Shown: positions 8,215 to 36,373, numbered from the stretch's first letter. The stretch is DNA of 64,000 nucleotides from Alphaproteobacteria bacterium (GCA_965261735.1 OZ253470.1:4800001-4864000); one strand, 5' to 3'. Numbers and translations are program-made. Notes: generated by a model from the sequence alone, not told the origin.

Positions 8215-9620
<1,406 letters not shown>

Positions 9621-11032: not shown

Positions 11033-11057
11033 GGCTATAAGTTACAGGAATAAATAA

Positions 11058-11309
11058 ATGCGGTTGGGTTTGAAAAACGTCCGCTGCTTTCACAGCGTTA
11101 GACCTCGTTTACATCGCGCCTCTTACAACCTTAGTCGGCGAAAATAGCACGGGAAAGTCTTCATTTCTCGCGCTTCAAAGAATCGCTCTGGAATTAATTA
11201 CGGGAGACTGGGGTCCCAACTTCAACAAAGAACCCTTCTTTCTCGGCGCGTACGATCAAATAGCACATTTTCGCGCGGGTCGTTTTGGCCGCGCTAGTTC
11301 ATTTGAAAT
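11058..11309 (+). pseudogene. N-terminal remnant of an ABC/AAA_15-21-type ATPase, frameshifted near 11100 and truncated by IS
   Basis: MRLGLKNVRCF then, one base shifted, IAPLTTLVGENSTGKS (Walker A); AT-rich. Confidence 0.7.
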
Positions 11310-11370
11310 CGCGATTATCAACTTGACACGTCACGTCTCAATCCCCATATGCAGGGGACAGGAGGAAATA

Positions 11371-18959: not shown

Positions 18960-19039
18960 GACGCTACGCTCGACATGGGAGCAGGGGCGGACCGGATCAT
19001 CGCATTCCCGGACCGCTCAAGCCAGGAGGCAGGACTAGG

Positions 19040-19911: not shown

Positions 19912-19940
19912 TAAGCTCCCTTATCTCATTGATGTGATGG

Positions 19941-20657
19941 TTAAACAAAAGAAACAGTGACTCTTCGATTGCGCCGCCCCTTGCTCTCGATTTTGCTCAC
20001 GGCGACGGCGCCGATTTCCCCGGTTCGCGCCACATGAGTGCCGCCGCAAGCCTGGAGATCGAGGCCCTCGACGCGCACCAGCCGCACCTCGCCGGCGCCG
20101 GCCGGAGGCTTTACCGATAGGGTCTTAACCAGATCCGGCCGGCGCGCGAGATCCGCCTCGGCGATCAACTCGGCGCTGACCGCGGCGTCGTCGCCCACGA
20201 GCCTATTGAGTTCGGCCGTGATTGCCGCCTTGTCGAGCGCGGCGTCGGCCACGTCCAGGTCGAGGCGACCCTTGCCTTCACCGACCTGGCCGCCGGTGAC
20301 GGGATAGGGGAGCACCGCCGACAGCAGGTGAAGGCAGGTGTGCATGCGCATCAGCCTGTGGCGGCGCGACCAGTCGATCTCGGCCGTGACCGTATCGCCG
20401 GGCGCAAGACCCCGCCACGCGGAGTCCGTGGCGGCGAGATGCACGATCGTGCCGGGCTCCTCGCCCTTGACCGCGCTCTCGATGGCGACGTCGCCGTCGG
20501 CGAAGGTGAGCCGCCCGCTGTCTCCAGGCTGCCCGCCGCCGGTGGGATAGAACACCGTGCGGTCGAGTTCGATACGACCGTCGGCGACCGAGATCAGGCG
20601 GGCCTCGCAACGCTTGGCATAGGCATCGGCCTGGAACACGGCTTCGGTGCGCGCCAC
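19941..20657 (-). CDS. alaX: AlaX alanyl-tRNA editing protein
   Basis: FYPTGGGQPGD, MRMHTCLH, QACGGTH. Confidence 0.92.
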   Translation of the reverse strand: MARTEAVFQADAYAKRCEARLISVADGRIELDRTVFYPTGGGQPGDSGRLTFADGDVAIESAVKGEEPGTIVHLAATDSAWRGLAPGDTVTAEIDWSRRHRLMRMHTCLHLLSAVLPYPVTGGQVGEGKGRLDLDVADAALDKAAITAELNRLVGDDAAVSAELIAEADLARRPDLVKTLSVKPPAGAGEVRLVRVEGLDLQACGGTHVARTGEIGAVAVSKIESKGRRNRRVTVSFV

Positions 20658-20660
20658 GGC

Positions 20661-21665
20661 TCAGTCCTCCAGCCAGTCCGGCGTCGGCAGCCCCTTTTCG
20701 CGCAGGAACGCCGGGTTGAACAGCCTGCTTTGATAGCGGGTCCCGTAGTCGGCGAGGATCGTGACGATGGTGTGACCGGGCCCTAGCTCCCGGGCCATGC
20801 GTACGGCCCCGGCCACATTGATGCCCGTCGATCCGCCCAGGCACAGCCCCTCCTGGCGCAGTAGGTCGAAAATGTAGGGCAGCGCCTCCGTGTCCGGGAT
20901 CTGGAAGGCCGTGTCGACGGGTGCTCCTTGGAGATTCTCGGTAACGCGGCCCTGGCCGATGCCTTCGGTGATGGAGCTGCCCTCCGCCTTGAGCTCGCCG
21001 TGCGTATAGTAGTTGTACAGGGCGGCCCCCATCGGGTCGGCGAGCGCGATCGTCACATCGGGCTTGCGTTCCTTGAGTGCCATTCCGACGCCGGCAAGGG
21101 TCCCGCCGGTGCCGACCGAGGACACGAAAGCATCGATCTTGCCGTCAGTCTGGCGCCAGATTTCGGGGCCGGTGCCCTCGTAGTGGGCGCGCCGGTTGGC
21201 GACGTTGTCGAACTGATTGGCCCAGATCGCCCCATTGGGCTCCGAGCGCGCGAACTCCTCGGCGAGGCGTCCCGAGATCTTCACGTAGTTGTTGTCGTCG
21301 GCATAGGGCACCGCCGGCACCGGCCGCAGATCGGCTCCGCACAGGCGAAGCATGTCCATCTTCTCCTGGCTCTGCGTGTCGGGAATGACGATCACGCTGC
21401 GGTAGCCGCGCGCATTGCCGACGAGTGCGAGGCCAATACCGGTGTTGCCGGCCGTGCCCTCGACGATGACGCCGCCGGGTCGCAGCAGACCGCGCTCCTC
21501 GGCGTCGCGGATGATGTAGAGGGCGGCCCGGTCCTTGACCGAGTTCCCGGGGTTGAGAAACTCGGCCTTGCCGAGAATCTCGCAGCCGGTGGCCTCGGAG
21601 ACCCGATCCAGGCGAACGAGTGGCGTGTTGCCGATCAGGTCGATGAAGCCGTCTGCGAGTTGCAC
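20661..21665 (-). CDS. cysK: Cysteine synthase A family PLP enzyme
   Basis: IGNTPL, NPGNSVKDR, EGTAGNTG, GTGGT, TEGIG; GTG start 21665. Confidence 0.9.
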   Translation of the reverse strand: MQLADGFIDLIGNTPLVRLDRVSEATGCEILGKAEFLNPGNSVKDRAALYIIRDAEERGLLRPGGVIVEGTAGNTGIGLALVGNARGYRSVIVIPDTQSQEKMDMLRLCGADLRPVPAVPYADDNNYVKISGRLAEEFARSEPNGAIWANQFDNVANRRAHYEGTGPEIWRQTDGKIDAFVSSVGTGGTLAGVGMALKERKPDVTIALADPMGAALYNYYTHGELKAEGSSITEGIGQGRVTENLQGAPVDTAFQIPDTEALPYIFDLLRQEGLCLGGSTGINVAGAVRMARELGPGHTIVTILADYGTRYQSRLFNPAFLREKGLPTPDWLED

Positions 21666-21747
21666 GGTGGGGAAGGAGCTGGGGAGGCGAGGGCGGTGCA
21701 ATCTAGCGGTCCGCCGGGGCCCGTTCAAGGGCGAGCAAGCCCGGGAG

Positions 21748-22353
21748 CTAGCGCCAGCGCTGGTGAACGCTATCGTGATTGAGCGCGAGCCACTGCAGGC
21801 CAATGACGGCGGCCGCGGTGTTGATGCGACCGGACGCCACGGCTGCGAACGCCTCCTCGCTCGTCATGACCAGGGCGCGGATGTCCTCGTCCTCGTCGTC
21901 CTTGCCGTGGACGCCGCCCGCCGATTCGGCATCGACGCGGCCGAGGAACAGCGTGACGTATTCCGACGATCCGCCGGGGCTCGCAAAGAATCCGCCGATG
22001 GGTTCGAGCGCTTCGAGCGTGAGGCCAGTCTCCTCCTGGGTCTCCTGTCGCGCCACCTCCGCCGGCGCCTCGTCCGCTCCGACGATGCCCGCGACCAGCT
22101 CGATCGGCCGCAGCGGGCCGCCTCCCGCGTGGGAGGCGATGCGGACCTGTTCGATCAACACCACGCGGTCCCGCGCTGGATCGTAGAGCAGAATGGCCGC
22201 GGCGTGGCCGCGCTCGAACACCTCGCGCACCACCACGCGGCTCCAGCCGCCGTCGTAGAGCCGATGGCGAAATCGATATCGGTCGACGCGGAAGAAGCCC
22301 TTGAACGGCGTCTCGATTTCAAGAATTTCGAGGTCCGCGTCGGCACCGGTCAT
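21748..22353 (-). CDS. nudF: ADP-ribose pyrophosphatase (NUDIX)
   Basis: REVFERGHAAA, ELVAG..ARQETQEETG, SPGGSSE, DEDEDI. Confidence 0.88.
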   Translation of the reverse strand: MTGADADLEILEIETPFKGFFRVDRYRFRHRLYDGGWSRVVVREVFERGHAAAILLYDPARDRVVLIEQVRIASHAGGGPLRPIELVAGIVGADEAPAEVARQETQEETGLTLEALEPIGGFFASPGGSSEYVTLFLGRVDAESAGGVHGKDDEDEDIRALVMTSEEAFAAVASGRINTAAAVIGLQWLALNHDSVHQRWR

Positions 22354-22413
22354 GGCTCTAACGCGGGACAACGGCGCGACGCAAGACGAGCGTCGATGTG
22401 GCGCCCGCCTCGC

Positions 22414-23121
22414 CTAGTAGTAGCGCCAGACGTTGTACTGGTTGTAGTACATGTCGCCGGTGTGGAGCACGGCGAAGCGGACCTCGTCCTGGGTACGCGG
22501 GGTTGTGGCATAGCGCGCCATGGCCGTGGGTCCGAGCGTGCCATGCTCTTCCTCGACGTCCGAGGCGTGTACGGAGAACGACATCAGGCCCTCGTCAGAC
22601 AGGTCGTAGTGCTCGCGCAAGCCCTTTTCCAGCTTGCCGAACACCAGGGGGTTGATGCGCTCGGCCGCGAACGAGACCGACGATATCGACTCGACAAACG
22701 GGCGGTTGCGGATGACGACCTCGAACCAGTGCCGCAGCGCCCAGGACTCGATGCGGATCGGGTCCTGCGCCCGGCGCTCCTCATCCCAGCCGAGCTCGGT
22801 GAGTGAGGTTTCGATCAGCTTCATGTGACCCGCCGTCTGCGAGCTCTCGCCGTGCTCCTCCTCGAGCATGTTCTCGAGGATGCCCTCGCGCAGGTCGTCG
22901 TCGGGGCACTTCGCCCAGAGCACGCCAAACAGCTTGTTCGACGGGTCCGCCCACAGCGAGAACTGATGGAGCCAGCCGGCGATCTGGTCCTTGGTTGCTT
23001 CGCCCTTCTCGACCGCCGCCACGAAAGGATGCTCAAGCCGGTTGCGCACCGGATCGAACAGCCCGTGTTCGAGTTCCTTCAGGAGTTTGTCGTTGCTGGT
23101 CGGCTGTTGTGCGGCAGTCAT
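22414..23121 (-). CDS. Heme-oxygenase-like diiron protein (PqqC/CADD/TenA-like), paralog B
   Basis: HPF N-terminal motif; ENMLEEEHG..GH; ER; HASDVEEEH candidate metal ligands. Confidence 0.78.
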   Translation of the reverse strand: MTAAQQPTSNDKLLKELEHGLFDPVRNRLEHPFVAAVEKGEATKDQIAGWLHQFSLWADPSNKLFGVLWAKCPDDDLREGILENMLEEEHGESSQTAGHMKLIETSLTELGWDEERRAQDPIRIESWALRHWFEVVIRNRPFVESISSVSFAAERINPLVFGKLEKGLREHYDLSDEGLMSFSVHASDVEEEHGTLGPTAMARYATTPRTQDEVRFAVLHTGDMYYNQYNVWRYY

Positions 23122-23156
23122 GGGGTTCTCCGGTTCGCCGCGCCCGAACGGCGCGC

Positions 23157-23885
23157 CTAGTAGTGCTTCCAGACGTCGTACTGGCGGTAATACATCATCG
23201 CGGTGTGGTCGACGACGAAGCGGATTTGCTCCTGGTCGCGGGCCGTCGTCGCGTAGCGCTCGATCGCGATGGGGCCGAGCGTTGCATGCTCCTCCTCGAT
23301 GTGGGAGGCGTGGACGGAGACCGACATCATCGCCTTCTCGCTGAGGTCGTAATGGGCGAGCAGGCCCTTTTCGATCTTGCCGAACACGAAGGTGTTCATG
23401 CGCTCAGCCGTGAACGAGGTCGCGCAGATCGCCTCGACGAACGGGCGCTGGCGCATGATGACCTCGAGCCAGTGCCGGAAGGCCCAGGATTCGTACTGGG
23501 TGATGTCGGTCGCGCGGCGCTCTTCGCTCCAGCCGAGCTCCCGGATCGTGGCGTCGATCAGCCGCATGTGGCCGGCCGTCTCGGAGCTCTTGCCATACTC
23601 CTCTTCGAGCATGTTCTCGAGCAACCCCTCGCGCAGGTCGTCATCCGGGCAGTTCGACCACATGTCGCCGATGAACTTGTTGCACGGGTCGGCCCACAGC
23701 GAGAACTGATTGAGCCACCCAGCGATCTGATCCTTCGTCGCCGTGCCGTTGAGGACCGCGAGTACGAAGGGGTGTTCGAGGCGGTTGCGCCCGGGGCTGT
23801 CGACGATCCCCAAAAGCTCCTCAACGAACGCCTCGGTGCTCAGGGGTTGTGTTTGGGTTTCCTGCCGCTCCGCCGCAACTGACAT
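23157..23885 (-). CDS. Heme-oxygenase-like diiron protein (PqqC/CADD/TenA-like), paralog A
   Basis: HPF; ENMLEEEYG..GH; ER; HASHIEEEH; [10 protein letters not shown] before ATG 23885. Confidence 0.78.
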   Translation of the reverse strand: MSVAAERQETQTQPLSTEAFVEELLGIVDSPGRNRLEHPFVLAVLNGTATKDQIAGWLNQFSLWADPCNKFIGDMWSNCPDDDLREGLLENMLEEEYGKSSETAGHMRLIDATIRELGWSEERRATDITQYESWAFRHWLEVIMRQRPFVEAICATSFTAERMNTFVFGKIEKGLLAHYDLSEKAMMSVSVHASHIEEEHATLGPIAIERYATTARDQEQIRFVVDHTAMMYYRQYDVWKHY

Positions 23886-23978
23886 CGCATCATCCTCCTC
23901 TTGAAGGACCGCCATCCTACGCGCTCGCATCGCCGTAGCCAAGAGGATGGCGCGACGAATCGGCCAGTCAAGTGGCGG

Positions 23979-24335
23979 CTAATTGGTGCTGTGGCGGGCC
24001 ACGTAGGTGCCGCCCACGGCGGCGCTGAAAAAGCGCTGGAGATCGGGATAGCGTATCGGCTCGCCGCTGTCGTCCGAGTCGAGGTTGCGCTCGGCCACGT
24101 AGGTCCAGTGCGCCGCGTCGTGGACCAGCACGTGGTCCCACGGTCGATCCTTCGGCGGCCGGCTGCGGGCCATGCGCTCGTACCACTCGTCGGAGCCGCT
24201 GAACACCGAGTCGACGTCGACGACGACGCCGCGATAGCCGAATAGGCGGTGGCAAACGACCTGGCCGACGCCGAACTTGGCCTCGCCGCCGAGCGCTCCG
24301 CCATCACCACCGCCCGGTGTTTCCGTGCCTCCCAT
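23979..24335 (-). CDS. hspQ: HspQ/YccV-like protein
   Basis: AKFGVGQVVCHRLFGYRGVVVDVD, PPKDRPW, TYVAERNL. Confidence 0.9.
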   Translation of the reverse strand: MGGTETPGGGDGGALGGEAKFGVGQVVCHRLFGYRGVVVDVDSVFSGSDEWYERMARSRPPKDRPWDHVLVHDAAHWTYVAERNLDSDDSGEPIRYPDLQRFFSAAVGGTYVARHSTN

Positions 24336-24336
24336 C

Positions 24337-25161
24337 CTACGCTCCGGCGCCGTCGAGAAAGTCGATAACCGTGCGGTTGAACAGGTCGGGAACCTCCAGG
24401 TACGAGACGTGCCCGGCGTCGGGGATCGCGACAAGTTCGGCGCTCGCTATCTTCTCGCGGGCCCTGACGCCTATCGCCAGCGGGACCGCCGCGTCCTCCT
24501 CGCCCCAGATCAGGAGCAGCGGCTTGGAGGCGGCGAGATCGGCCAGGCGGTCGCCGATATTGTCCTCATCAATCCGCTCGGCGATGTAGTCGCCGAGGCT
24601 GTCGAACGCGGCGACCGCACCGGGCGAGTTGTTGATGCGGAACTCTTCGTCGATCAGCGCCTCGGTGATCAGCGCTTTCTTGGCGAAGACGAGCTGCAGC
24701 TTGCCCGCGATCCCCTCGCGGGTCGTGTTCTTCACGTTGTCGCGGACAATGGCGCTGGCCTCGGGGCCGATCGGGATGATGCCGACGCTGCCGACGAGCG
24801 CGACGGCACTCACGCGGTCGGGGTGGTCGCACGCGAACATGCCGCAAACGTGGCCGCCGAGCGAGGTGCCAACGACCGCCGCGCGGGCGAGGCCGGCCGC
24901 ATCGGCGAAGTCCTTGACGAAACCCGCGAACGCGGGCACGCCGTACGCATAGTCCGTGTTCTTGTCGGCGAATCCGTGACCGGGGAGGTCGATCGCGTAG
25001 CAGTGATAGCCGGCCGCCGCGATCGCTTCCAGGTTGGCGATCCAGCGGTCGGCGCGCGCGCCCAGGCCGTGGACGAAGATGACTGCCCGGTCGCCGCTCC
25101 CGGCCTCGATGACGCGCGTCAGCGCTTCGCCGGCGGCAAAGGGATAGCTGATGATGGCCAT
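24337..25161 (-). CDS. Alpha/beta hydrolase
   Basis: VHGLG, DLPGHG, nucleophile GTSLGG, WGEED, AGH. Confidence 0.9.
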   Translation of the reverse strand: MAIISYPFAAGEALTRVIEAGSGDRAVIFVHGLGARADRWIANLEAIAAAGYHCYAIDLPGHGFADKNTDYAYGVPAFAGFVKDFADAAGLARAAVVGTSLGGHVCGMFACDHPDRVSAVALVGSVGIIPIGPEASAIVRDNVKNTTREGIAGKLQLVFAKKALITEALIDEEFRINNSPGAVAAFDSLGDYIAERIDEDNIGDRLADLAASKPLLLIWGEEDAAVPLAIGVRAREKIASAELVAIPDAGHVSYLEVPDLFNRTVIDFLDGAGA

Positions 25162-25214
25162 GGTCTCTCCTCGTCTCGGTGGGCGATCACGTTGCGCGGA
25201 CCCCGATACGGAGG

Positions 25215-25300
25215 CTAACCGCCGAGGTAGGACCGCTGGACCTCGTCATTGTCGAGGAAGGTCCCGGCCCGGGCCTTCGAAGGCGATCTCGCCGGTCGAG
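25215..25300 (-). pseudogene. C-terminal stub of a LivF-type branched-chain ABC ATPase
   Basis: STGEIAFEGPGRDL / LDNDEVQRSYLGG* with an internal 1-nt shift. Confidence 0.65.
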
Positions 25301-25315
25301 AACCTCGCCGTCGTA

Positions 25316-26497
25316 CTACGAAAACTTACGCGGCCCAGGATCGCGCAGGATCTGCATGGTGCCGCAGTGCATGCCGCCGCCGAACCGGTTGTACTCGTCG
25401 TACTCGATCGGTATCACCTCGACGCCGGCGGCCCGCACGCGCTTGATCGTCTCCTTGGCCCCGGCGTGCATGATCACCAGGCCGGGCTCGATCGTGACCG
25501 CGTTGCACGCGCACGCCTCGACCTGTTCCTCCACCGGTGCCTCGATGATCTTGTAGCCGTTGCCCCACAGGAACCTGTTGGTATCGACGTCGAGCGCTGC
25601 CGGGTAGCAGATCACCTTGTCGACGTCGACCGGCGAGATGATCATGTCGGTGTGTGCGGAGATACCCGAGCCGTGGTCGAAATAGCCCATGCCCGGCGTG
25701 TAGATGCGCTGAATGTGGACGTCTTCGCCGCACGCCCTCTTGAGCACGGGAAGGAACTGCTCCATGCCGGCCTCGTTGGTCTCGACGCTGATGGCGTGGA
25801 CGTAGACGTCGTCGGCCAGGAACAGGCCCTGTACCCACACGGCCTTGCCGACGACGGTGAGCAAAGGCGCGATGCCGAGGTTCCAGAAGGCCCAGCGCGC
25901 GAGGTGCTCGGTCCGGCCGAAGCCCGACAGGGGCGCGAGCGCGTAGCCCTTCTTGGGGATGATCGAGCCCCCCGGCAGGATGGTCAGCTCGCCCGCTGAG
26001 TGCTGATTGGTCATCGGACCGAAGGCCGCCATCGGCCTTTCCGGATACTCGATCCAATAGATCTTGACGCCGCACGAGGTCAGTGCCTCCGCGTACATCA
26101 GCTGCTGCTCGCGCAGCTTGCCGATATCCATCTTGCGCTCTTCGAGCATGCCGTCGCGGACGATGTAGTCGGGGTCTTCCTTCATGTACGGGTGTTCGGC
26201 GTAGTTGTCGTCGTCGGAGACACGCACGAGGCCGACCTCGCGCAGCTTGCCGATCCCGGCCGAGCCGCATTTGCGGCCGAAGACCTCGTCGTAATAATTG
26301 AGGTAGTCATAATCGTGCCAGTCGAAGGGGTTCTGCTCGAGGCTCTTGCCCTTGCCCTTGTAGAAGGGGACGTCGTTGAGGGTCCAGTTGCGCCGGCGCT
26401 GGCGCTCCTGGTGCGCGTCGTACTCGGTCAGCGCGAACTCCTGACTCCGGCGCCCTTCGGGCAGCTGGGTCCCCTCCTTGCCGCTGATCTGGGTCAT
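25316..26497 (-). CDS. Pentein (amidinotransferase/arginine deiminase fold) protein, paralog 1
   Basis: GKLREVGL, AHTDM, CNAVTIEPG, GGGMHCGT..LRD. Confidence 0.82.
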   Translation of the reverse strand: MTQISGKEGTQLPEGRRSQEFALTEYDAHQERQRRRNWTLNDVPFYKGKGKSLEQNPFDWHDYDYLNYYDEVFGRKCGSAGIGKLREVGLVRVSDDDNYAEHPYMKEDPDYIVRDGMLEERKMDIGKLREQQLMYAEALTSCGVKIYWIEYPERPMAAFGPMTNQHSAGELTILPGGSIIPKKGYALAPLSGFGRTEHLARWAFWNLGIAPLLTVVGKAVWVQGLFLADDVYVHAISVETNEAGMEQFLPVLKRACGEDVHIQRIYTPGMGYFDHGSGISAHTDMIISPVDVDKVICYPAALDVDTNRFLWGNGYKIIEAPVEEQVEACACNAVTIEPGLVIMHAGAKETIKRVRAAGVEVIPIEYDEYNRFGGGMHCGTMQILRDPGPRKFS

Positions 26498-26534
26498 CTC
26501 AAAGGCCTTTCCCTGCTCTTCGGTGGGCGTCTTA

Positions 26535-27716
26535 TCAGCTGAACTTGCGCGGCCCGGGATCGCGCAATATCTGCATCGAGGCGCAATGTAGGCCGGCGCC
26601 GAACAGGTTGTACTCGTCGTAGTCGACAGCGATCACCTCGACGCCTGCCTGGCGCACCTTGTCGATCGTCTTGCGCGCGCCGGCGTGCATGATGACGCGC
26701 CCCGGCTCGAGCGGAATGAGGTTGCAGGCAAGGGCCCCCGACTGCTCCTCGGGCTCGGCCTCGATGACCTGGTAGCCGTTGTTCCACAGCCACCTGTTGG
26801 TATCGACGTCGATGCCGGGCGCGTGGACCAGCACCTTGTGCAGGTCGAGGGGGGCGATCACCATGTCGGTGTGGGCGCTGATCCCGGTGGCGCGGTCGAA
26901 ATAGTCGTGACCCGGCGTGTAGATGCGCTGGATGTGCAGGTCCTCGCCGACGACGCGGCGCATCACCGGCTCGACCTGGCTCATGCCCTCTTCGTTGGTT
27001 TCCACCGCCATGGTCTGGCAGTAGACGTCGTCAGCGAGAAACACCCCGGTCACCCACATGCCCGTCCCGACGACCGTAATCAGCGGCGGGATGCCGAGGT
27101 TCCAGAACGCCCATCGCGCCAAATACTCGGTCCGTCCGAAGCCCGAAGTCGGCGCCAGCGCATAGCCTTTCTTGGCGATGATCGAGCCGCCCGGCAACAC
27201 CGTAAGCTCGGCGGCTGACATCTGGTTGGTCATCGGCCCGAAGGCCGCCATTGGGCGCTCCGGGTACTTGATCCAGTAGACCTTGACCCCCTGTTCCTGG
27301 AGGACATCGGCATAGCGCGCTTGTTGGTCGCGCATTTTGGGGATGTCCATCTTCTTCTCGGCCAGGAAGCCGTCGCGGTCCATGTAGCCGGGGTCTTCCT
27401 TGACGTAGGGGTGCTCGGCGTAGTTGTCGTCCTCGCTGACCTCGAGGAGGCCGACCTCGCGCAGCTTGCCGATCCCGGCCGAGCCGCATTTGCGGCCGAA
27501 GACCTCGTCGTAATAGTTGAGGTAGTCGTAATCGTGCCAGTCGAAGGGGTTCTGCTCGAGGCTCTTGCCCTTGCCCTTGTAAAAGGGGACGTCGTTAAGG
27601 GTCCAGTTGCGCCGGCGTTGACGCTCCTGGTGCGCGTCGTACTCGGTGAGCGCGAACTCCTGGCTCCGGCGCCCTACCGGCAGCGGGGTCCCCTCTTTGC
27701 CGCTAATCTGTGTCAT
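26535..27716 (-). CDS. Pentein protein, paralog 2
   Basis: AHTDM, CNLIPLEPG, GAGLHCAS..LRD; 393 aa, same length as paralog 1. Confidence 0.82.
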   Translation of the reverse strand: MTQISGKEGTPLPVGRRSQEFALTEYDAHQERQRRRNWTLNDVPFYKGKGKSLEQNPFDWHDYDYLNYYDEVFGRKCGSAGIGKLREVGLLEVSEDDNYAEHPYVKEDPGYMDRDGFLAEKKMDIPKMRDQQARYADVLQEQGVKVYWIKYPERPMAAFGPMTNQMSAAELTVLPGGSIIAKKGYALAPTSGFGRTEYLARWAFWNLGIPPLITVVGTGMWVTGVFLADDVYCQTMAVETNEEGMSQVEPVMRRVVGEDLHIQRIYTPGHDYFDRATGISAHTDMVIAPLDLHKVLVHAPGIDVDTNRWLWNNGYQVIEAEPEEQSGALACNLIPLEPGRVIMHAGARKTIDKVRQAGVEVIAVDYDEYNLFGAGLHCASMQILRDPGPRKFS

Positions 27717-27826
27717 GTCTTTCCCTGTCAGGCGATAGATGGATCGCTGGAGTTGCGGCCGGCGACCGCGCTGCGCTGCCGCCCGCGCCGGTACCCGACC
27801 CCTGTCCTTAGGCTGCCAGAGCCGAT

Positions 27827-29005
27827 CTACGAGAACTTGCGCGGCCCTGGATCCCTGAGGATCAGCATGGTCGCGCAAGTAATGGCCGCCCCGTATTTGT
27901 TGTACTCGTCGTAATCAATGGAGACCACCTCGACGCCGGCCTTGCGCACCGCCGCGATCGTCTTTTCGGCGCGCGCGTGCATCATCACATGGCCTGGTTC
28001 GAGGTTGACGATGGCCGCGGCCGAATGCTGGATCTGCTCGTTTAGGTCGGCCTCGATCACCGTATAGCCGTTCTTGCGCAGCCAGACGTGGGTGTTGATG
28101 TCGACGCCCGCTGTGTGCACGAGCACCTTGTCCACGTCGAGCCCGCTGATGACCATGCCGCCGTGGGTGTTGGCGCCGGTGTACTTGTCAAAGTACTTCC
28201 ACCCGGGCGTCCTTATCGGCTGGATGTGGATGTCTTCGCCGCACACGTGCCTGAGCACCGGCGTGACCTGATTGAGGCCATCCCAATTCGTCTCGACTCC
28301 CATGCCCTGCATGTAGACGTCATCGGCGAGGAAGGTACCGGTGACCCATACGCCCTTGCCGGTGACGGTCAACAGGGGCGGGATGCCGAGGTTCCAGAAC
28401 GCCCAGCGCGCCAAGTATTCCGCTCGCCCGAGCCCCGCGGTCGGCGCCAGGGCGTAGCCTTTTTTGGGGATGATCGAGCCGCCCGGCCAGATTGCGAGTT
28501 CGGCCGCCGAATGCATGTTCATCATCGGCCCGAAGGCCGCCATGGGCTTTTCCGGGTACTCGACCCAGTACACCTTGACGCCGGCCTTCTCGAACGCTTC
28601 GGCGAACGCCTCGGCCTCGTCGTTGAGCCTGCTGACATCCACCTTGTCGCTCAGGAGGAAGAAGCCGTCTCGGTTCATGTACTCCTTGTCTTCGTGAAAG
28701 TAGGGGTGATTGGAGTACTCGTCGTCGGGGGTCGGGCGGACGATGCCGACTTCGCGCAGCTTGCCGATCCCGGCCGACCCGCACTTGCGGCCGTAGATCT
28801 TGTCGTAGGCCTCCATGTAGTCGTAGTTGGCCCAATCGAAGGGATCGTGTTCCTGGCCCTTGCCCTTGTAGAAGGGCACATCCTTGAGCTTCCAGTCGTG
28901 CTGGCGCAGCTTTTCCTGATGGAGGTCGTATTCGGTGACCGCGAAGCTCTGGCTCCGCCTCTTTTCCGGCAGAGGCTCGTTCTCGTCGCCCTTGATCTCT
29001 GCCAT
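27827..29005 (-). CDS. Pentein protein, paralog 3 (lacks the His-x-Asp aspartate)
   Basis: THGGM, GAAITCAT..LRD; GGAGG RBS 6 nt before ATG 29005. Confidence 0.8.
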   Translation of the reverse strand: MAEIKGDENEPLPEKRRSQSFAVTEYDLHQEKLRQHDWKLKDVPFYKGKGQEHDPFDWANYDYMEAYDKIYGRKCGSAGIGKLREVGIVRPTPDDEYSNHPYFHEDKEYMNRDGFFLLSDKVDVSRLNDEAEAFAEAFEKAGVKVYWVEYPEKPMAAFGPMMNMHSAAELAIWPGGSIIPKKGYALAPTAGLGRAEYLARWAFWNLGIPPLLTVTGKGVWVTGTFLADDVYMQGMGVETNWDGLNQVTPVLRHVCGEDIHIQPIRTPGWKYFDKYTGANTHGGMVISGLDVDKVLVHTAGVDINTHVWLRKNGYTVIEADLNEQIQHSAAAIVNLEPGHVMMHARAEKTIAAVRKAGVEVVSIDYDEYNKYGAAITCATMLILRDPGPRKFS

Positions 29006-29235
29006 CTTCATCCTCCCTAGGTACCACGATATTTGTTGGGCGAGATTATGGTACGCCCAGCCGCGGCGAGGCAACCGGAAACGGGCGGCGTCCGCGCACG
29101 CCGGGCGGCCGTGCCCCCGGCGCGCGGGGCACCATATTGAAATCGCTGGATTTCAGGTATGATGGGGATGTCGTGGGGTCCTCGGCGCAAAGGCTTGGTT
29201 CGCGTTCGGGGCGAAGCGGTTGAGGAGAAGCGGCA

Positions 29236-30250
29236 GTGAGCGAAACCCAGATTCACGACCTGACCGGCCCGCAAAAAGGCGGCGACCCTGATGCTCGCCC
29301 TGAGCGAGCAACAGTCGGCGGTGATGTTCGCCAAGATGGATGACGACGACATCCGCGAACTCTCCCAGGCGATGGCCAATCTCGGCGTGATGAACGCCTC
29401 TGCGGTCGAGCAGGTCTTCATCGAGTTCGCCAGCCAGATTGGCACGGGCGCGCTGCGCGGCAGCTTTGAGACGACCGAGCGGGCGCTGCTTGCCGGGGGA
29501 CTCGATGCCGAGCGCGTCGAGTACCTCATGGAGGAGATGCGCGGCCCGGCCGGGCGAACGCTTTGGGACAAGCTCGGCAATGTGAACGAGGAGACGCTCG
29601 CTACCTATCTCAAGAACGAATACCCGCAGACGGTCGCGGTGGTACTGTCGAAATTGCTGCCGGACAACGCTGCGCGGGTGCTGGGTGCGCTGCCCGAGGA
29701 CCTGGCGATGGAAGTCGTCACGCGCATGCTGGGCATGGAGCCGGTGCGTAAGGAGGTTCTGGAGAGCGTCGAGCAAACCTTGCGCAAGGAGTTCATGAGC
29801 AACCTGGCGCGTACCACTCAGCGTGACAGTCACGAGATGATGGCCGACATCTTCAACAACTTCGACCGTGCCACGGAGGGCCGTTTCATGGCGGCGCTCG
29901 ATGAGCGCGATCGCGACGGCGCCGAGCGCATCAAGGCGATGATGTTCACCTTCGAGGATTTGGTGAAGCTCGACCCAAACGGCGTGCAGGCTCTCTTGCG
30001 CGGCGTCGAAAAGACCAAGCTCGCGTTGGCCATAAAGGGCGCGTCAGAGACGCTGAGGGACCTGTTCTTCAGCAACATGTCCGAGCGCGCCGGCAAGATC
30101 CTGCGCGAGGACATGGACTCGATGGGGCCGGTACGGGTGAGCGACGTGGACGAGGCGCAGACCGCGATGGTGGCGGTCGCCAAGGAACTTGCCGACCGCG
30201 GCGAGATCATTCTCGCCGACTCCAAGGGCGCCGACGAGCTCATCTACTGA
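29236..30250 (+). pseudogene. fliG: Flagellar motor switch protein FliG with a +1 frameshift in the A5 run at 29273-29277; orphan
   Basis: GTG..LTGPQK / [40 protein letters not shown]. Confidence 0.8.
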
Positions 30251-30325
30251 CGTTGCGACGCGAGCGTGGCGTAGGGGGGCTGGACGGGCTGTCCGCCCCA
30301 CGCGTCTAGGATTGGCTCGGCGGGA

Positions 30326-30637
30326 TCACTCTATCGTGGGCGCGGCGTCCACGAGCACCGCACCCTCGGTGTTCGCACCGGCGAGGTTGGTCCGGTACAA
30401 ATCGGCATCCGTGAGATCGGCACCGCTCAGGTTGGTGGGCCACATCTGCCCGGTCTTTTTGCCGTCCGCATCTTTGAGTTCAACGGGTCCGAGATCGGCG
30501 TGGGCCAGCTTCGCGCCCTGTAAGTTGGCGTTGTTCAGGTTGACGCCCTTAAGGTCGGAATAGCTGAGATCGGCACCGGCCAGGTTTGAGTCATGAAGAT
30601 CGCACAGGACGAACCAGCCCGACGACAGGTTGGTACC
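30326..30637 (-). pseudogene. Pentapeptide repeat protein, C-terminal remnant
   Basis: Repeated A(D/N)Lxx units (SNLAGADLSYSDLKGVNLNNANLQGAKL); 5' part replaced by IS30 sequence. Confidence 0.8.
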
Positions 30638-31346: not shown

Positions 31347-32451
31347 CTTGCCTATCCGGTTAACGCCCATGACCGCTACATGTAGGGTGCCGCCACTCTC
31401 CCGAGTAAAGCTCGGCATAGGTTGGAGCAGAGGTGTCGCCCGCGATGCCGAGCAATGAGCGGAAGGCGTTGAACGGGTAGAACCGCCTGTTGAAGCGGAA
31501 GGTGAACTCGTTGAGGTAGGCTTGTAGGTGCTGGTGGCTAACGCCGTGATGGATACCGATCAGCCACGTCTTCAGGTTGGCGAAAACCAGATGGATGATC
31601 GGCAGGTATTGCTCGGCAACCTCTGGATCACCACACTCGGCAACAGCGAAGTGCTCATAGCCGCGCTTACCGAGGCCAGCATAGCCGCTCCAATCGTCAG
31701 TAACGATCAGCGATCGCGGCGCGACGGTGCTCTCGACGAACCCACAGAGCGACTCGGCGCTACGGTCGAGCACGACGGCGAGCCGAACGCGTCCGGCATA
31801 GCGTCCGTCTTTCCGGTTGTCGAGCTTGGTGCCCGGCTTTCGATGACGCACCTCGATGGCACAGGAGACGGGAACCTTGTGGTGAACACCACGGCCTTCC
31901 CCACGCGTTCGCCCGCCAACCCAGGTTTCGTCCACCTCAACATGGTTCTTGGGCTGTCCACCGATCCTGTCTTGGTTGGGCCGCACCATGCCCGAGCGGA
32001 GCTTGTGGAGAATTTGAAAGGCCGTCTCGTAGCGCGAAAGACCAAGTTGCCGCTGAAACTGCACGGCGGACATGCCGGGCGTCTGACTGGCGACCAGATA
32101 AGCGGCCCAGAACCAGACGTTCAGCGGAGTGTGGCTACGCTCCATCACTGTTCCCACCGTCAGCCCGGTGTTCTGGCGGCACTTGCGGCAGCGCAGGACG
32201 CCAGGGCGGTTTTCAAAGTGGAACGGCTCTCCCGCCGTGCCGCAGTGCGGGCAGGCAAAGCCGTCTCCCCAGCGGGCTTTCTCCAGGTAGGCGGCGCAGG
32301 CCGCATCATCGGGGAAAAGTCGCTGGAACTCGGGTAGCGAATGCGGGAATGGGAGATCGGCGCGGTCGAGAACATCCATGGCGCGTTCCCCTATATCCGG
32401 TTTGCGCCCATTCTAGCCCTAGTGGGTGTGGGTGTAACCCGGATAGGCAAG
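31347..32451 (-). mobile_element. IS1595 family (ISSod11-like group) element, copy 2, 1105 bp, inverted relative to copy 1
   Basis: Near-identical to 3131-4235, with matching IRs; flanks GAACGAAC / GCTTGAAC are not duplicated. Confidence 0.95.
31360..32379 (-). CDS. IS1595 transposase, intact, 339 aa
   Basis: Uninterrupted ORF with Zn ribbon, DD-H-K motif and EFTFRFNRR. Confidence 0.93.
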
Positions 32452-32560: not shown

Positions 32561-33469
32561 CTATGTCCTCGCCATCTTCTCGAGCTTGGTCGCGCGGATG
32601 ACGTTTTGATCGAGGGCCGCGTCGGATTTCGCATCCATCCCGAAAGCGACGGCCATGAGCTGGCTGTAGAACACGACCGGAATGTTATGGTCGGTCCCGT
32701 ACTCCTTGTTGACCGCGTCCTGATACATCTCGACGTTCTGCTGGCACAGCGGGCAGGGCGTCGCGATCACATCGGCCTCGGCCGCCTTCGCCGCATCGAG
32801 GATCTGCTTGATGAGGTGGAGCGTCTTGTCGGGATTGATCACCGAAATGGCGCCGCCGCAGCACGAGGTCTTGACGTCGAAGTCGACGGCCTCGGCGCCG
32901 ACGGCCTTGGTGAAGTCGTCGAGGAAGTCGGGGTCGTCGTAGGTGTCGTAGTTGCCACCGGCGTCGGTGTTGGCGAACGGCCTGACCGTTTGGCAGCCGA
33001 CGTAGCCAGCCACCTTGAGGCCGTCCAAGGGGTTGGTCACCCGCTCCTTGATGGTGTCGATGCCGACGTCGTTGACGATCACCTCGCAGGCGTGGCGCAC
33101 GTTGAGGTCCTCGTCGTAGGCGAGATCGCCCTCGGCCAGCGCCTCGTTGACGTTGCGCCTGAGCCTTACGTCCTCCTTGATCTTCTCGTTGACCGAATGG
33201 GTGTTGATGTAGCAGGCGGCGCAGCCCGTCAGCACGTCCTTCGGGCCCTGCTTTTGGGCGAGCGCCAGGTTGCGCCCCGATAGCACGGTGTTGGGCAGAT
33301 AGCCGCTCTCGACGTGGCCGACCGACGCGCCGCAGCAATTCCAGTCATCGAGCTCCTCGAGCTCGACGCCGATTTCGGGCGCGATCGCGCGCAGGGACTT
33401 GTCGAGGTGCGAGGCACTGCCCTGCGAGCTACAGCCGGGGTAGTAGGTGTATTTCTTGGGCTCGGTCAT
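32561..33469 (-). CDS. hdrB: Heterodisulfide reductase subunit B-like (two CCG domains)
   Basis: YYPGCS, WNCCGA, CAAC, YVGC, CCGG, CPLCQ. Confidence 0.92.
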   Translation of the reverse strand: MTEPKKYTYYPGCSSQGSASHLDKSLRAIAPEIGVELEELDDWNCCGASVGHVESGYLPNTVLSGRNLALAQKQGPKDVLTGCAACYINTHSVNEKIKEDVRLRRNVNEALAEGDLAYDEDLNVRHACEVIVNDVGIDTIKERVTNPLDGLKVAGYVGCQTVRPFANTDAGGNYDTYDDPDFLDDFTKAVGAEAVDFDVKTSCCGGAISVINPDKTLHLIKQILDAAKAAEADVIATPCPLCQQNVEMYQDAVNKEYGTDHNIPVVFYSQLMAVAFGMDAKSDAALDQNVIRATKLEKMART

Positions 33470-34086
33470 GATCCCGCGTCTCCGCTTTCACGCGCCTCGA
33501 TCTCCTTGGCCTTGCGCATGATGGCTTTCAGGCCCTTGGTGTCCTTGATCTTCTTCGGCCTGCCAAAATGCATGCGCCCGGTACGGAGCATGTTGAGCGC
33601 GATTTTCATGTTCCGCAGACCCTTTCCGACGCCCTCCCTGAGGCCGCCCGAAAAATAGTATGCGGCGGTCACCAGCCGCTCGTCGGTGCGGCCGTAATTC
33701 AGCGTGCTCCACCAGAACGACTTGGCGAACCGTGCGTTCTCGGAGGCCGCCGCCTTCGCGTAGCCCTGCTCGACGGCCTTGGTCATCAGGTCTTGGAGGA
33801 TGTTGGCGACCGGAATGCCGCGCGGACATCGCACAACGCAGCGGTAGCACAGCACGCAGTTGTGCATGGTGTTCGACGTCATCACCGCCTCTTTCATGCC
33901 GGCGCGGATCATCATGAACAGCTTGCGCGGCCCATGGTCCATTTGCGTGCCAATAGGACAGGACCCCGAGCACACGCCGCACTGCATGCACATGCTGAGC
34001 TTGTCGCCGCCGTCGACGTTGTCGTAGACCCACCTCGCGAAGCCGAGGTCGTAGGTACCCTCCGCGGCGGCGGCGGTTTCGGTCAT
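33466..34086 (-). CDS. hdrC: Heterodisulfide reductase subunit C-like 2x[4Fe-4S] protein
   Basis: CMQCGVCSGSCP and CVLCYRCVVRCP; start and stop overlap qmoB and hdrB. Confidence 0.9.
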   Translation of the reverse strand: MTETAAAAEGTYDLGFARWVYDNVDGGDKLSMCMQCGVCSGSCPIGTQMDHGPRKLFMMIRAGMKEAVMTSNTMHNCVLCYRCVVRCPRGIPVANILQDLMTKAVEQGYAKAAASENARFAKSFWWSTLNYGRTDERLVTAAYYFSGGLREGVGKGLRNMKIALNMLRTGRMHFGRPKKIKDTKGLKAIMRKAKEIEARESGDAGS

Positions 34087-36359
34087 CAGTGGACGCCCTT
34101 GAACGGGTTCGGATCGAGCTCTCCGATCCGCGCGACGAAGTCGTCGATCACCTGGGGCACGCGAGCCGAATCGGCGATGGAAATCTCCTCGGCCGCGACC
34201 CGCGCCGCGTCGAGCGCCATCATGTCGAGCGTGTCCTTCATCTTGGTCGCGCGCTCCTCGGCGATCCGGCTGCCCTTGATGAAGTGGCACTGATAATCGT
34301 CGGTCGATTTGCAGCCCATCATCATGACGCCGTCGAAGCCCTCCGACAGGGCCTCGGTGATCCAGGACACGCTGACCGAGCCCAGGCACCTGACCGGGAC
34401 GATCCGGACGAACGGGCTAAAGGACGTGCGCGCGATGCCGGCCATGTCGAGCGCCGGGTAGGCGTCGTTCTCACATGCGAGGACCAGGACGCGAGGCTCG
34501 TTCGGTGCATCGACCGGCACGTGGACGGAGCGGATTATCTCCGTGACCATGTGCACGCTGTAATTGTCGAACTCGATGGTCGACACCGGGCAAGCCCCCA
34601 TGCAGACGCCGCAGCGCCGGCACCGCGTCTCGGCCACCGCGGGGTAGCGGTCGGCGCCGACCTCGATGGCGCCAAACGGGCACTCCATCGAGCACCGGCC
34701 GCATTGCGTGCACTTGTCGAGGCCGAACTTCGGGATCGACAGGTCGCCCACCCGCGGATGGACCGCTGCCCCCTCCGGGGCGTTGCGGATCGCCTGAACG
34801 GCCTTGAGAACGGCCCCGGCCGCGTCCTCGGCGGCCTCGGCCATGGCCATGGGCGTGCGCACGGGGCCGCAGGTGTAGATGCCGGTGCGCCGGGTCTCGT
34901 AAGGGAAGCACACGAAATGGGAGTCCGCGAAGCCGTCGGCCAAAGCGGGCAGGTGCGGCCCCTGCCGGTACTGCAGGTTAAGGATCGCCCCCCCCGCGGG
35001 CAGTTCCTCGTCGGCGCGCGGCCAGGGGTCGGCGGGCTCTCCGGCATAGCCGGCCAACTCGAGCGGCGTCACCGGATTGATGTCGGAGCGCAGCAGGTCT
35101 TCGCCGCGATCCAGCTCCGGCGCCTCGGGGTCGGTCGTGTTCGGCACCATTCCGGTCGCCAGGACGACGAGGTCGAGGCCGGCCATGGGGATCTCCTGGC
35201 CGAGAAACTCGTCATCGACCAACACCGTCAAATCCGAGTCGACGGACTTGACCTTGCCCTTCATGAAAATGACGCCCGCCTCCTGGGCCTGGCGGTAGAA
35301 CTCCTCGGCCGTCCCCGGCGTGCGCAGCTCCTCGTAGATGACGTAGACGTTGGCCGCGGGCTCGGCCTCGAGGATCTGCAGCGCCTGCTTGATAGAGGTA
35401 CCGCAACAGATCGACGAGCAGTAGGGCAGATGGTTGGGGTCGCGCGAGCCTGCGCACTGGATGAAGGCGACGGTGCCAACCGGCCCCTCGTCCGACCGGC
35501 GCGCGATCCGGCCGTGGGCCAGCATCTCCTCGAGCTCGATGTTGGTGACCACGTCGGGCGAGGCGCCGTAGCCGAGGTGCCCGAGCTTGGCCGGATCGTA
35601 CGGGCGCCACCCCGTGGCCACGACGATGGCGCCCACGCGGACGTGGTCGTCCCGACCCTGGTGCTTGAGGTCAACCTCGAACTTGCCCGGCATGCCATCG
35701 GTTTTGGCGACCACCGCCTCGGTCATCACCGTGACCAGGGGGTCGCCCAGGACCGCCGCGATCAGGTCGTCGATGTCGTTGGGCTGGGGGTCGCGGTAGG
35801 GGGGCCGGTGGGGCATGCGCCGGCTCCACTTGCGCGACCATCCGCCGAGCTCGGCCGCCCGCTCCACCAGCACGACCTCGTGACCGAGCTTCGCCGCCTC
35901 GCGCGCCGCCGTGAGGCCCGAGAGGCCGCCGCCCACGACCATCAGGCGCCGGCTGAAATCGCCCTCCGTCAACGGCTCCGGCGCCGTCGCGTTGGCCGCC
36001 TGGGCGATCGCCATGCGCAAGGAGTCGGCGGCCATCTCCTGCGTACGTGGGTCACCGGCCGGGTGGGTCCACACTACCTGCTCGCGAATGTTGGCGCGTA
36101 CGACGTCGGTACCGTCGAAGGTGAAGCGGTCCGCCATCACGCGGTGCGAGCAGGCGACGATGATGGCTTGATCGATGGCGCCGGCGCCAATGTCTTCGCG
36201 GATGGCGCTGACGCCCTCGTCGCTGCACAGGCAGTCGTGCTGGCGGCACAGCGGCATCGCGAACTCGCCCGTGGCCACGTCCTCGAGCGCGTCGACCGAG
36301 ACGGCCTCGCCGATGCCGCAGCCTTGGCACAGATAGACGCCGGGTTTCCTGGGCTCCAC
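34086..36359 (-). CDS. qmoB: QmoB (HdrA-like flavoprotein with ferredoxin and MvhD domains)
   Basis: YLCQGCGI, GGGLSGLTAA, QCAGSRD..YCSSICC, LNLQYRQG, CFPYETRRTG, ACENDAYPA, VRCLGS. Confidence 0.9.
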   Translation of the reverse strand: MEPRKPGVYLCQGCGIGEAVSVDALEDVATGEFAMPLCRQHDCLCSDEGVSAIREDIGAGAIDQAIIVACSHRVMADRFTFDGTDVVRANIREQVVWTHPAGDPRTQEMAADSLRMAIAQAANATAPEPLTEGDFSRRLMVVGGGLSGLTAAREAAKLGHEVVLVERAAELGGWSRKWSRRMPHRPPYRDPQPNDIDDLIAAVLGDPLVTVMTEAVVAKTDGMPGKFEVDLKHQGRDDHVRVGAIVVATGWRPYDPAKLGHLGYGASPDVVTNIELEEMLAHGRIARRSDEGPVGTVAFIQCAGSRDPNHLPYCSSICCGTSIKQALQILEAEPAANVYVIYEELRTPGTAEEFYRQAQEAGVIFMKGKVKSVDSDLTVLVDDEFLGQEIPMAGLDLVVLATGMVPNTTDPEAPELDRGEDLLRSDINPVTPLELAGYAGEPADPWPRADEELPAGGAILNLQYRQGPHLPALADGFADSHFVCFPYETRRTGIYTCGPVRTPMAMAEAAEDAAGAVLKAVQAIRNAPEGAAVHPRVGDLSIPKFGLDKCTQCGRCSMECPFGAIEVGADRYPAVAETRCRRCGVCMGACPVSTIEFDNYSVHMVTEIIRSVHVPVDAPNEPRVLVLACENDAYPALDMAGIARTSFSPFVRIVPVRCLGSVSVSWITEALSEGFDGVMMMGCKSTDDYQCHFIKGSRIAEERATKMKDTLDMMALDAARVAAEEISIADSARVPQVIDDFVARIGELDPNPFKGVH

Positions 36360-36373
36360 CTTGCCGTGCCCCG

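Follow-up and report, generated by a model that had tools for sequence, protein, structure and literature searches.

Three tandem genes, here named A, B and C, were identified in a stretch of 64,000 nucleotides from the genome of an Alphaproteobacteria bacterium (GCA_965261735.1, OZ253470.1:4800001-4864000; the window, hereafter, is this whole stretch), and their products were assigned to the penteins, with the 2-nitroimidazole nitrohydrolase NnhA as the nearest relative of solved structure. On the basis of their sequences and of analogy to NnhA, we estimate a probability of about one half that the proteins are subunits of a hetero-oligomer that hydrolyses, in a catabolic role, an amidine- or guanidine-like compound other than arginine, which is probably cationic. 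New is the pentein clade to which they belong, which lacks the Glu partner of the catalytic His, is charge-reversed at the substrate end and is encoded as pairs of paralogs, whereas NnhA and the uncharacterised cluster surrounding it were already known.

Open reading frames (ORFs) and translations confirmed the initial annotation of three tandem paralogs of ~393 amino acids (aa) with the common C-terminus ILRDPGPRKFS, the actual lengths being 392-393 aa (Table 1). The motifs quoted there were all found, i.e. those of the C-terminal Cys (GGGMHCGT, GAGLHCAS and GAAITCAT in A, B and C, respectively) and of the His (AHTD, AHTD and THGG), as well as SAGE, SAAE and SAAE, and WVQG, WVTG and WVTG. Pairwise protein identities were 76% (A-B), 60% (A-C) and 62% (B-C), which is far beyond chance.

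All three proteins passed the arginine deiminase (ADI) family PF02274 of Pfam, for which a search had been suggested, with 39.6, 32.2 and 26.1 bits vs the cut-off of 22.8, and the match was confined to the last ~80 residues. The NCBIfam models of ADI, dimethylarginine dimethylaminohydrolase (DDAH) and ArgZ gave 13-37 bits vs cut-offs of 300-1025, in agreement with the initial view of penteins other than ordinary ADI or DDAH. In these, the whole-protein ADI models TIGR01078 and NF002381 scored 22.8-36.7 bits (cut-offs 414-489), the DDAH models NF045658, NF045659 and NF045660 scored 13-36 bits (cut-offs 300-450), and the ArgZ matches were weak (E 1e-6 to 0.07). In HMMER searches of the PDB the top match was NnhA (9azg, 9b01) over ~357 residues (34-390), with E-values of 5.2e-56 (A), 3.6e-58 (B) and 1.6e-55 (C), whereas DDAH and ADI structures matched with E 1e-5 or weaker and at the C-terminus only. 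Some sources name relatives of the three as “N-dimethylarginine dimethylaminohydrolase”, and ESM Atlas returned only generic clusters named after ADI or DDAH.

Structure models were in line with the sequence matches. AlphaFold2 models of A and C (predicted template modelling scores 0.90 and 0.88; local confidence, pLDDT, in Table 1) had 9azg as the first Foldseek match, with template modelling (TM) scores of 0.83/0.88, a root-mean-square deviation of 2.1-2.2 and 32-33% identity over 367 columns. The runner-up was DDAH (TMq 0.54-0.55), followed by amidinotransferases and ADIs. The Foldseek probability was 1.00 to NnhA, DDAH, ADI, amidinotransferases and ArgZ, which places the models in the five-fold alpha/beta propeller of the pentein superfamily (Pfam clan CL0197). 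The extended N-terminus proposed at first was real and corresponded to the NnhA arm up to the hinge, where T54 of NnhA aligned with K76 of A. According to the NnhA paper (PMC11659421), this N-terminal extension gives a domain-swapped dimer, three dimers make up a hexameric ring, and the extra alpha-helical domain of ADIs is not present in NnhA.

Identity of A, B and C to NnhA was 32-34%, which is below the >50% of close kinship. In the same source, only eight sequences are more than 50% identical to NnhA, the activity is extended to none below 50%, and NnhA is located at the tip of a cluster of uncharacterised guanidine-modifying enzyme (GME) proteins (PMC11659421). A, B and C are accordingly placed, by sequence, in an NnhA-like branch of the penteins and are neither NnhA proper nor ADI nor DDAH; they work most like NnhA and are members of its wider uncharacterised cluster. 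The subfamily is thus no orphan, although it had been called undescribed, since NnhA matches residues 34-390 and its paper maps the cluster around it (PMC11659421).

Active-site residues were mapped by pairwise HMMER alignments and by a MAFFT alignment of 155 sequences, which included the NnhA ortholog P0135 (E 7e-242 to 9azg). The numbering of P0135 equals native NnhA numbering, and PDB chain numbering equals native numbering plus 7, as verified on nine named residues. In the NnhA paper, the residues given as catalytic are C357, H260 and E197, and D262 and N311 are also needed, as the variants D262N and N311D are each inactive (PMC11659421). In comparison to ADI and DDAH, W149 occupies the place of the second guanidinium-binding Asp, S216 and M168 are at the positions of the carboxylate-binding Arg residues, and G143 is at that of the amine-binding Asp (PMC11659421).

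By alignment, the Cys nucleophile (C357) and the catalytic His (H260) were present in all three proteins, as C378 and H282 in A and B, and as C377 and H281 in C. D262 corresponded to D284 and N311 to N332 in A and B, with Gly and Ala, respectively, in C. Thus the third paralog is devoid of the His-x-Asp aspartate, as noted initially, and the conserved Asn is lost in addition. E197, the acidic partner of His that is Glu in NnhA, ADI and DDAH alike, was replaced by Val in all three (V222 in A and B), so that none of them carries the complete NnhA catalytic set. In the pairwise HMMER register E197 falls one residue earlier, on W221, and there is no acid in either register. A profile of the family aligned to Pseudomonas aeruginosa DDAH with gvlEaG on GTVEAG and svAtN on SARTN; this stretch is weak alone (i-Evalue ~12) but in collinear order with the significant match at the C-terminus. 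As had been stated, all three proteins are without the Glu of the EGGD-type motif.

At the substrate end, S216 corresponded to E239 in A and B and to Glu in C (motif VETN), and G143 to N164 in A and B and to Asn in C, i.e. the Arg and Asp that bind the alpha-carboxylate and alpha-amine of arginine have Glu and Asn in their places. W149 aligned with E170 in A and B and with E169 in C. This is the Glu of SAGE/SAAE, which the initial annotation had taken for an altered clamp; it aligns with the position of the second clamp Asp, so A and B appear to keep both guanidinium-clamp acids (E170 and D284; two are found in ADI and one in DDAH), and C has E169 alone. The proposal of altered guanidino-binding motifs thus stood for the EGGD Glu and failed for the clamp Glu, A and B also have the His-x-Asp aspartate, and the expectation that the canonical guanidinium positions lack acidic residues was contradicted in part by E170 and D284. 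Aligned to NnhA, the true loss would be that of the His-partner Glu in all three proteins, with Asp and Asn additionally lost in C. The hydrophobic pocket of NnhA (W149, F146, M168 and F250) was not kept: besides W149 to Glu, F146 was changed to Ser and F250 to Tyr, and the alignment of the M168 region contained a 3-residue insertion. Of the other pocket residues, K356 was changed to H377 in A and B and to Thr in C, and C352 to G373 in A and B and to Gly in C.

Ordinary ADI, DDAH or NnhA-type nitroimidazole nitrohydrolase activity would agree with the DDAH labels of relatives, the Pfam ADI match and the two clamp acids of A and B. This explanation is extremely improbable in view of the low NCBIfam scores, Glu at the position of the carboxylate-binding Arg, Asn at that of the amine-binding Asp, and the low identity to NnhA, where W149, E197, S216, F146, C352 and K356 are all changed; the NnhA authors withhold the activity from sequences less than 50% identical (PMC11659421).

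The family is rare, as indicated by few matches in an exhaustive search of 1.84 billion cluster representatives (413 at E≤0.001, 120 at 1e-10 and 34 at 1e-30). From 4092 candidates, a word-indexed search yielded 244 relatives, and the best 120 of these were listed. Among 155 family sequences of at least 330 aa, Glu was at column 222 in 111 and at column 239 in 36, and none of these 36 had Glu at column 222 (28 Val, 4 Ile, 2 Leu, 1 Thr and 1 Gly); the remaining 8 showed other combinations.

A FastTree phylogeny was calculated with 120 of the 155 rows, after 35 of P0043-P0124 whose active-site signature was already represented twice had been dropped. The tree has many long branches outside the clade of interest, and our conclusions rest on strongly supported inner groups. 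The Glu-less proteins grouped together in a single clade of 41 rows (stem length 0.45, support 100), and the NnhA ortholog P0135 was outside it. In the clade as a whole, Val, Ile or Leu occupies the position of the His-partner Glu, and Glu (VETN) that of the carboxylate-binding Arg. The phylogeny proposed in the initial annotation thus gave a distinct clade, and in the AlphaFold models, proposed as well, the nearest fold turned out to be NnhA, which was already described. Within the clade, 16 rows formed the C-type group (support 100), with E170, His and Cys in 16/16 and D284 and N332 in 0/16. The partner group (21 rows, support 99) comprised A- and B-like proteins and two degenerate offshoots of four rows each, one with Cys to Ser and D284 to Asn, the other with His to Arg and Cys to Ala or Ser. 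The remaining four rows were basal. Among the records searched, the Glu-less clade was found only in metagenome-assembled genome (MAG) records titled Alphaproteobacteria, and two titles name lake samples. C-type proteins are thus a conserved separate lineage, and gene C is not a peculiarity of the window locus.

Genome contigs were scanned for related loci: 83 stretches matched and 13 of them encode a relative, which resulted in 12 loci, ten in Alphaproteobacteria MAG records, one in Syntrophobacteraceae and one in Euzebyaceae. Ten C-type genes were identified: the window has one, L001 has two, and L002, L003, L004, L007, L008, L009 and L010 have one each. A partner-type gene directly followed the C-type gene in all ten cases, i.e. 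in the window and eight related loci, which makes the C-type the constant member of every pair. The partner was fully equipped in six pairs; in the other four (the second pair of L001, L008, L009 and L010) it had Ser in place of Cys, so that the C-type was the sole subunit with the nucleophile, and the Cys-less partner of L001 was also devoid of His. In L001 (739-5560), four NnhA-like genes stand in a row, a C-type gene with a full partner and then a C-type gene with the Cys-less and His-less partner; the two pairs differ, and each resembles pairs of its own type from other genomes more closely than it does its neighbour in L001. The C-B-A triple of the window is accordingly a C-plus-partner pair in which the partner has been duplicated. 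Distances among C-type proteins followed those among partners (r = 0.93; 0/5000 permutations reached that value), which by itself shows only that the pairs were inherited and duplicated as units.

Two side observations concern these loci. The partner gene of L008 (10001-11146), which is of the His-to-Arg, Cys-to-Ser type, has an internal stop at codon 237, which could reflect decay of the gene or a fault in the assembly. In the Syntrophobacteraceae locus L011, a 343 aa ORF (10948-11976) directly follows a distant pentein homolog; it had no Pfam match, and its aligned sequence shared only 17-19% identity with A, B and C.

The pairing bears on two other explanations. The three proteins may be independent homo-oligomeric isoenzymes, each with its own NnhA-like homohexamer and different substrates of one class, and the tandem a result of duplication only. 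NnhA itself is described as a homo-oligomer (PMC11659421), and A and B are recent duplicates. Moreover, lone partner-like genes were found in L005 and L006 (L006 is on the same contig as L002, ~12 kb from the L002 pair as calculated from the ranges), and the MAGs behind L002/L006/L010 and L004/L005/L009 contain five clade genes each at several places, as in a family diversifying its specificities. A partner directly downstream of every C-type gene speaks against isoenzymes, and the Cys-less partners kept beside the C-type are hard to explain by them, and we consider this explanation unlikely. Alternatively, gene C could encode a non-catalytic scaffold or regulatory subunit for catalytic A and B, since C is without both residues whose exchange inactivates NnhA in D262N and N311D (PMC11659421). 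This form of the “one altered subunit” of the initial annotation is quite improbable, as Cys, His and E170 are kept in all 16 C-type rows of the tree, and in the four pairs where only the C-type holds a nucleophile, the scaffold would be the partner.

A hetero-oligomer is favoured because of the invariable pairing, the retained Cys-less partners and the dimer-of-arms architecture of NnhA. In it, the N-terminal arm would join C to B or A in the manner of the NnhA dimer, and the dimers may form a ring. Fold, arm and the Cys/His pair together point to covalent catalysis of the NnhA/ADI type at an sp2 carbon flanked by nitrogens, and the bond cleaved by means of the Cys would be C-N (or C-X), at a carbon of the kind found in amidines, guanidines or 2-substituted azoles. 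With both clamp acids, A and B would suit a group resembling guanidinium or amidinium, or an azole that carries two N-H, better than a nitro compound, and Glu at the Arg position together with Asn at the Asp position disfavours arginine or an alpha-amino-acid end in the ADI/DDAH pose. The substrate would be imported, would not be arginine, and in place of arginine's carboxylate would probably present a positive or hydrogen-bond-donor group. A and B, with their tight two-acid site, and C, with its opened site, could share out two consecutive steps or accept differently substituted leaving groups, in a catabolic role of nitrogen or carbon acquisition. In DDAH, according to the NnhA paper, Lys instead of Asp at the D262 position leaves space for the dimethylamino leaving group (PMC11659421), and thus C, with small residues at the positions of D284 and N332, may accept a substituted substrate or a neutral intermediate. 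Of the function proposed initially, the non-arginine substrate is very likely and the hetero-oligomer is the best reading of the gene pairing, while gene C as an oddity of this locus was not upheld.

Three ways to account for the lost His-partner Glu are possible: Glu239 takes over, water is activated in an alternative way, or the chemistry is non-hydrolytic. A rather unlikely combination is a heteromeric pentein whose two unlike sites, an ADI-like clamp in A and B and a DDAH-like open site in C, divide the work. The His-Glu dyad would then have been given up, the VETN Glu would stand next to Trp at the far end of the pocket, and consecutive or alternative C-N/C-X cleavages would act on a cationic substrate without a carboxylate at that end. 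Cyclic guanidines or 2-substituted imidazoles, including 2-amino- and 2-thio-imidazole amino-acid betaines, would fit such a two-site enzyme in view of imidazole C2 as the site of the NnhA reaction, the importer of amino-acid type and the neighbours in L004 and L007 that resemble the GbcA demethylase. Ergothioneine or another 2-thioimidazole had been considered because NnhA acts at C2 and the window contains sulfur genes (heterodisulfide reductase-like, rhodanese, cysteine synthase-like and Cys/Met pyridoxal-phosphate enzymes). Since these genes are absent from the related loci, and an insertion sequence (IS) element or unrelated genes stand between them and the penteins in the window, this substrate was otherwise rejected and was kept only among these two-site candidates.

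The surroundings of the pairs have uptake and breakdown of a nitrogenous organic compound as their apparent overall theme. A Liv-type ABC importer, composed of a Peripla_BP_6 binding protein, a fused permease of ~645 aa and one or two ATPases, was downstream of the pair in six of the eight related C-type loci, immediately next to it in L002, L003, L004, L007 and L008, and with two genes in between in L001. L009 and L010 had the binding protein only, upstream of the pair. The binding protein of L007 (11216-12406) was closest to amino-acid binders (3ip5, E 2.6e-42; LivJ/K, ~1e-33). Two GbcA-like Rieske oxygenase subunits and an HpcH aldolase were encoded in L007, and two Rieske ring-hydroxylating alpha subunits (Pfam assignment only) and an HpcH aldolase in L004. 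A LigXa-like protein (L001, L009) or a Rieske-domain protein (L010) was in each case accompanied by an alpha/beta hydrolase. An amidase was present in L009, and amidohydrolases were also among the neighbours of related loci, while L008 contained a nitroreductase, a GntR-type FCD regulator fragment and a haem-oxygenase-like protein. The distant relatives in L011 and L012 adjoin UbiD, LigB, CN-hydrolase and molybdenum hydroxylase genes.

Downstream of gene A in the window are an alpha/beta-fold hydrolase, two haem-oxygenase-like iron enzymes (64% identical to each other) and an HspQ/YccV-like gene, all on the same strand as the penteins (Table 1). Homologs of the hydrolase were 48% identical in L008 and 28-30% identical in L001, L009 and L010, and a haem-oxygenase-like homolog was directly upstream of the pair in L008 only. 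Whether the penteins share a pathway with either type of enzyme is uncertain. The three proteins could also be amidinotransferases or other non-hydrolytic penteins that join the haem-oxygenase-like oxidases in the biosynthesis of a natural product of guanidino or imidazole type, in accordance with the two CADD/PqqC-like enzymes on the same strand, the missing general-base Glu of the hydrolytic step, and SxtG, HsvA, StrB1 and AGAT among the Foldseek matches. Such a function is very unlikely, since TM scores to the transferases (0.53-0.59 vs 0.83 to NnhA) are fold-level matches only, importers and degradative enzymes dominate the related loci, the haem-oxygenase-like gene was found in only one of eight related C-type loci, and other biosynthetic enzymes are absent.

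Table 1. Location of the pentein genes, the promoter match and downstream neighbours, counted from the first nucleotide of the window.
Feature	Coordinates	Strand	Description
Promoter match	29045-29074	minus	sigma-70-like, TTGCCT-18-CATAAT, ~40 nt upstream of gene C start
Gene C	27827-29005	minus	392 aa, C-type NnhA-like pentein; AlphaFold2 pLDDT 90.1
Gene B	26535-27716	minus	393 aa, partner-type NnhA-like pentein
Gene A	25316-26497	minus	393 aa from ATG, second partner-type pentein; AlphaFold2 pLDDT 91.8
Alpha/beta-fold hydrolase	24337-25161	minus	155 nt downstream of A; like meta-cleavage-product C-C hydrolases (HsaD/BphD E 7e-30)
Haem-oxygenase-like iron enzyme, copy 1	23157-23942	minus	CADD/PqqC-like
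Haem-oxygenase-like iron enzyme, copy 2	22414-23121	minus	4-aminobenzoate synthase CADD, E 5e-8

Several points weigh against the hetero-oligomeric hydrolase. The active-site equivalences derive from sequence alignments, and the three proteins, devoid of the His-partner Glu, could be poor hydrolases or none at all; C, without the equivalents of D262 and N311, could be catalytically dead. The putative physical association of C with its partner is deduced from gene order, shared inheritance and the precedent of NnhA, and a mirror-tree correlation is expected for any two linked genes, whether or not their proteins touch. The partner-like genes of L005 and L006 have no C-type gene adjacent. No Liv-type transporter was present among the 57 window proteins scanned, and the neighbours of the pairs vary between loci, so that the context names no substrate.

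At the DNA level, gene B starts at the ATG giving MTQISG and gene C at the ATG giving MAEIKG, whereas the mechanical ORFs extend to TTG at 27878 and to 29074, respectively. A purine-rich Shine-Dalgarno-like stretch precedes each of the three starts. The sigma-70-like promoter match was the only one in 22000-29400, where 0.9 are expected by chance, and is a consensus match only. Genes A and B were 91%, 96% and 98% identical in their first three 90-nt blocks and 61-82% in the other ten. The near-identical 270 nt (26228-26497 in A, 27447-27716 in B), synonymous sites included, look like a gene conversion tract, and span the part aligned with the NnhA arm to the hinge plus a few more residues. An Rfam scan with gathering thresholds identified one tRNA only in the whole window, and a permissive scan of 21500-30500 gave nothing, neither a guanidine nor any other riboswitch. 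The guanine-cytosine content of the window is 61-69%, and it encodes a regulator of the PhyR type, which is typical of Alphaproteobacteria.

The rest of the window had features of its own. A complete FliG gene (N, M and C domains; 29291-30250, plus strand) is located between the pentein genes and a pentapeptide-repeat ORF, and no other flagellar genes were seen among the window proteins scanned. A heterodisulfide reductase (Hdr)-like set on the minus strand (32561-37648) comprises HdrB-like (CCG domains), HdrC-like ferredoxin and HdrA-like flavoprotein genes, the last with fused MvhD/FlpD, and a further flavin adenine dinucleotide oxidoreductase; an IS1595 transposase and the lone FliG gene lie between this set and the penteins. 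On the other side (17793-21803, minus strand) are genes for a Cys/Met pyridoxal-phosphate enzyme, a two-domain rhodanese, an AlaX-like tRNA-editing protein, a PALP (cysteine synthase/CBS-like) enzyme and then a NUDIX hydrolase. Five transposase genes were identified (3203-4222, 11323-12225, 31360-32379, 50293-51507 and 52109-53155), three of IS1595 type (in the first of these, the zinc-ribbon and DDE parts are separate ORFs) and two from the Mutator family. The window appears heavily rearranged, which may explain the missing pentein-linked importer. A dihydrolipoamide dehydrogenase gene (8218-9620, plus strand) that follows E1/E2 genes is split by a frameshift or sequencing error into ORFs of 84 and 383 aa meeting at 8469-8472. 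An unusual fusion was found in a 1308 aa ORF (55988-59914, plus strand), where a penicillin-amidase domain (76-770) is joined to a complete GH3 (N, M and C domains).

Penteins are known from textbooks as single-site, homo-oligomeric Cys hydrolases and transferases of guanidines. With NnhA it was shown that this fold is also capable of aromatic substitution on an imidazole. If the preferred hetero-oligomeric hydrolase is correct, the clade would add obligate pairs of unlike paralogs, some with a dead partner, and an active site with a charge-reversed substrate end and without the conserved His-partner Glu. Literature searches gave no paper that deals with this clade or with penteins that are heteromeric or without the Glu. 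The clade may mark an unrecognised route for the use of a natural organic nitrogen compound, because it is rare, occurs in Alphaproteobacteria MAGs and is located next to importers, and it offers a defined point from which to explore the uncharacterised GME cluster that surrounds NnhA.

Of the known systems, NnhA of Mycobacterium sp. JS330 (9azg, 9azh, 9b01, 9b02) is the most similar, with the same whole-length fold, N-terminal dimerisation arm and lid. It shares the Cys nucleophile and His with A, B and C, and Asp262 and Asn311 with A and B, and like them it has no binders of the amino-acid end of arginine and belongs to a rare niche family. The window proteins differ from it in Glu197 to Val, Ser216 to Glu, Lys356 to His or Thr, Cys352 to Gly and Phe146 to Ser, and in Trp149 to Glu, which restores the ADI/DDAH-type acid. 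NnhA is encoded by a single gene, whereas the window genes belong to conserved pairs of unlike paralogs, and these differences in pocket and pairing make a nitroimidazole substrate unlikely.

DDAH, for example that of P. aeruginosa (1h70/3bpb), has the same propeller core (TMt 0.80-0.83) and the same Cys/His chemistry, and its Lys at the D262 position, described in the NnhA paper (PMC11659421), serves as a precedent for the opened site in C. With ~255 residues it has no N-terminal arm or lid, and at the positions of Val and Glu in the window proteins it has retained the catalytic Glu (GTVEAG) and the Arg that binds the carboxylate (SARTN), respectively. ADI (PF02274/TIGR01078) is of the same superfamily and combines two clamp acids with Cys and His, as do A and B. 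In contrast to ADI, the window proteins are without the catalytic Glu and the binders of the arginine alpha-carboxylate and alpha-amine, and score 23-34 bits vs 489 with TIGR01078. The dihydrolases AstB and ArgZ hydrolyse two C-N bonds in succession at a single guanidino carbon and are thereby a functional analogy for a possible two-step division between the C-type protein and its partner, with the difference that in AstB and ArgZ both steps take place in a single active site of one polypeptide.

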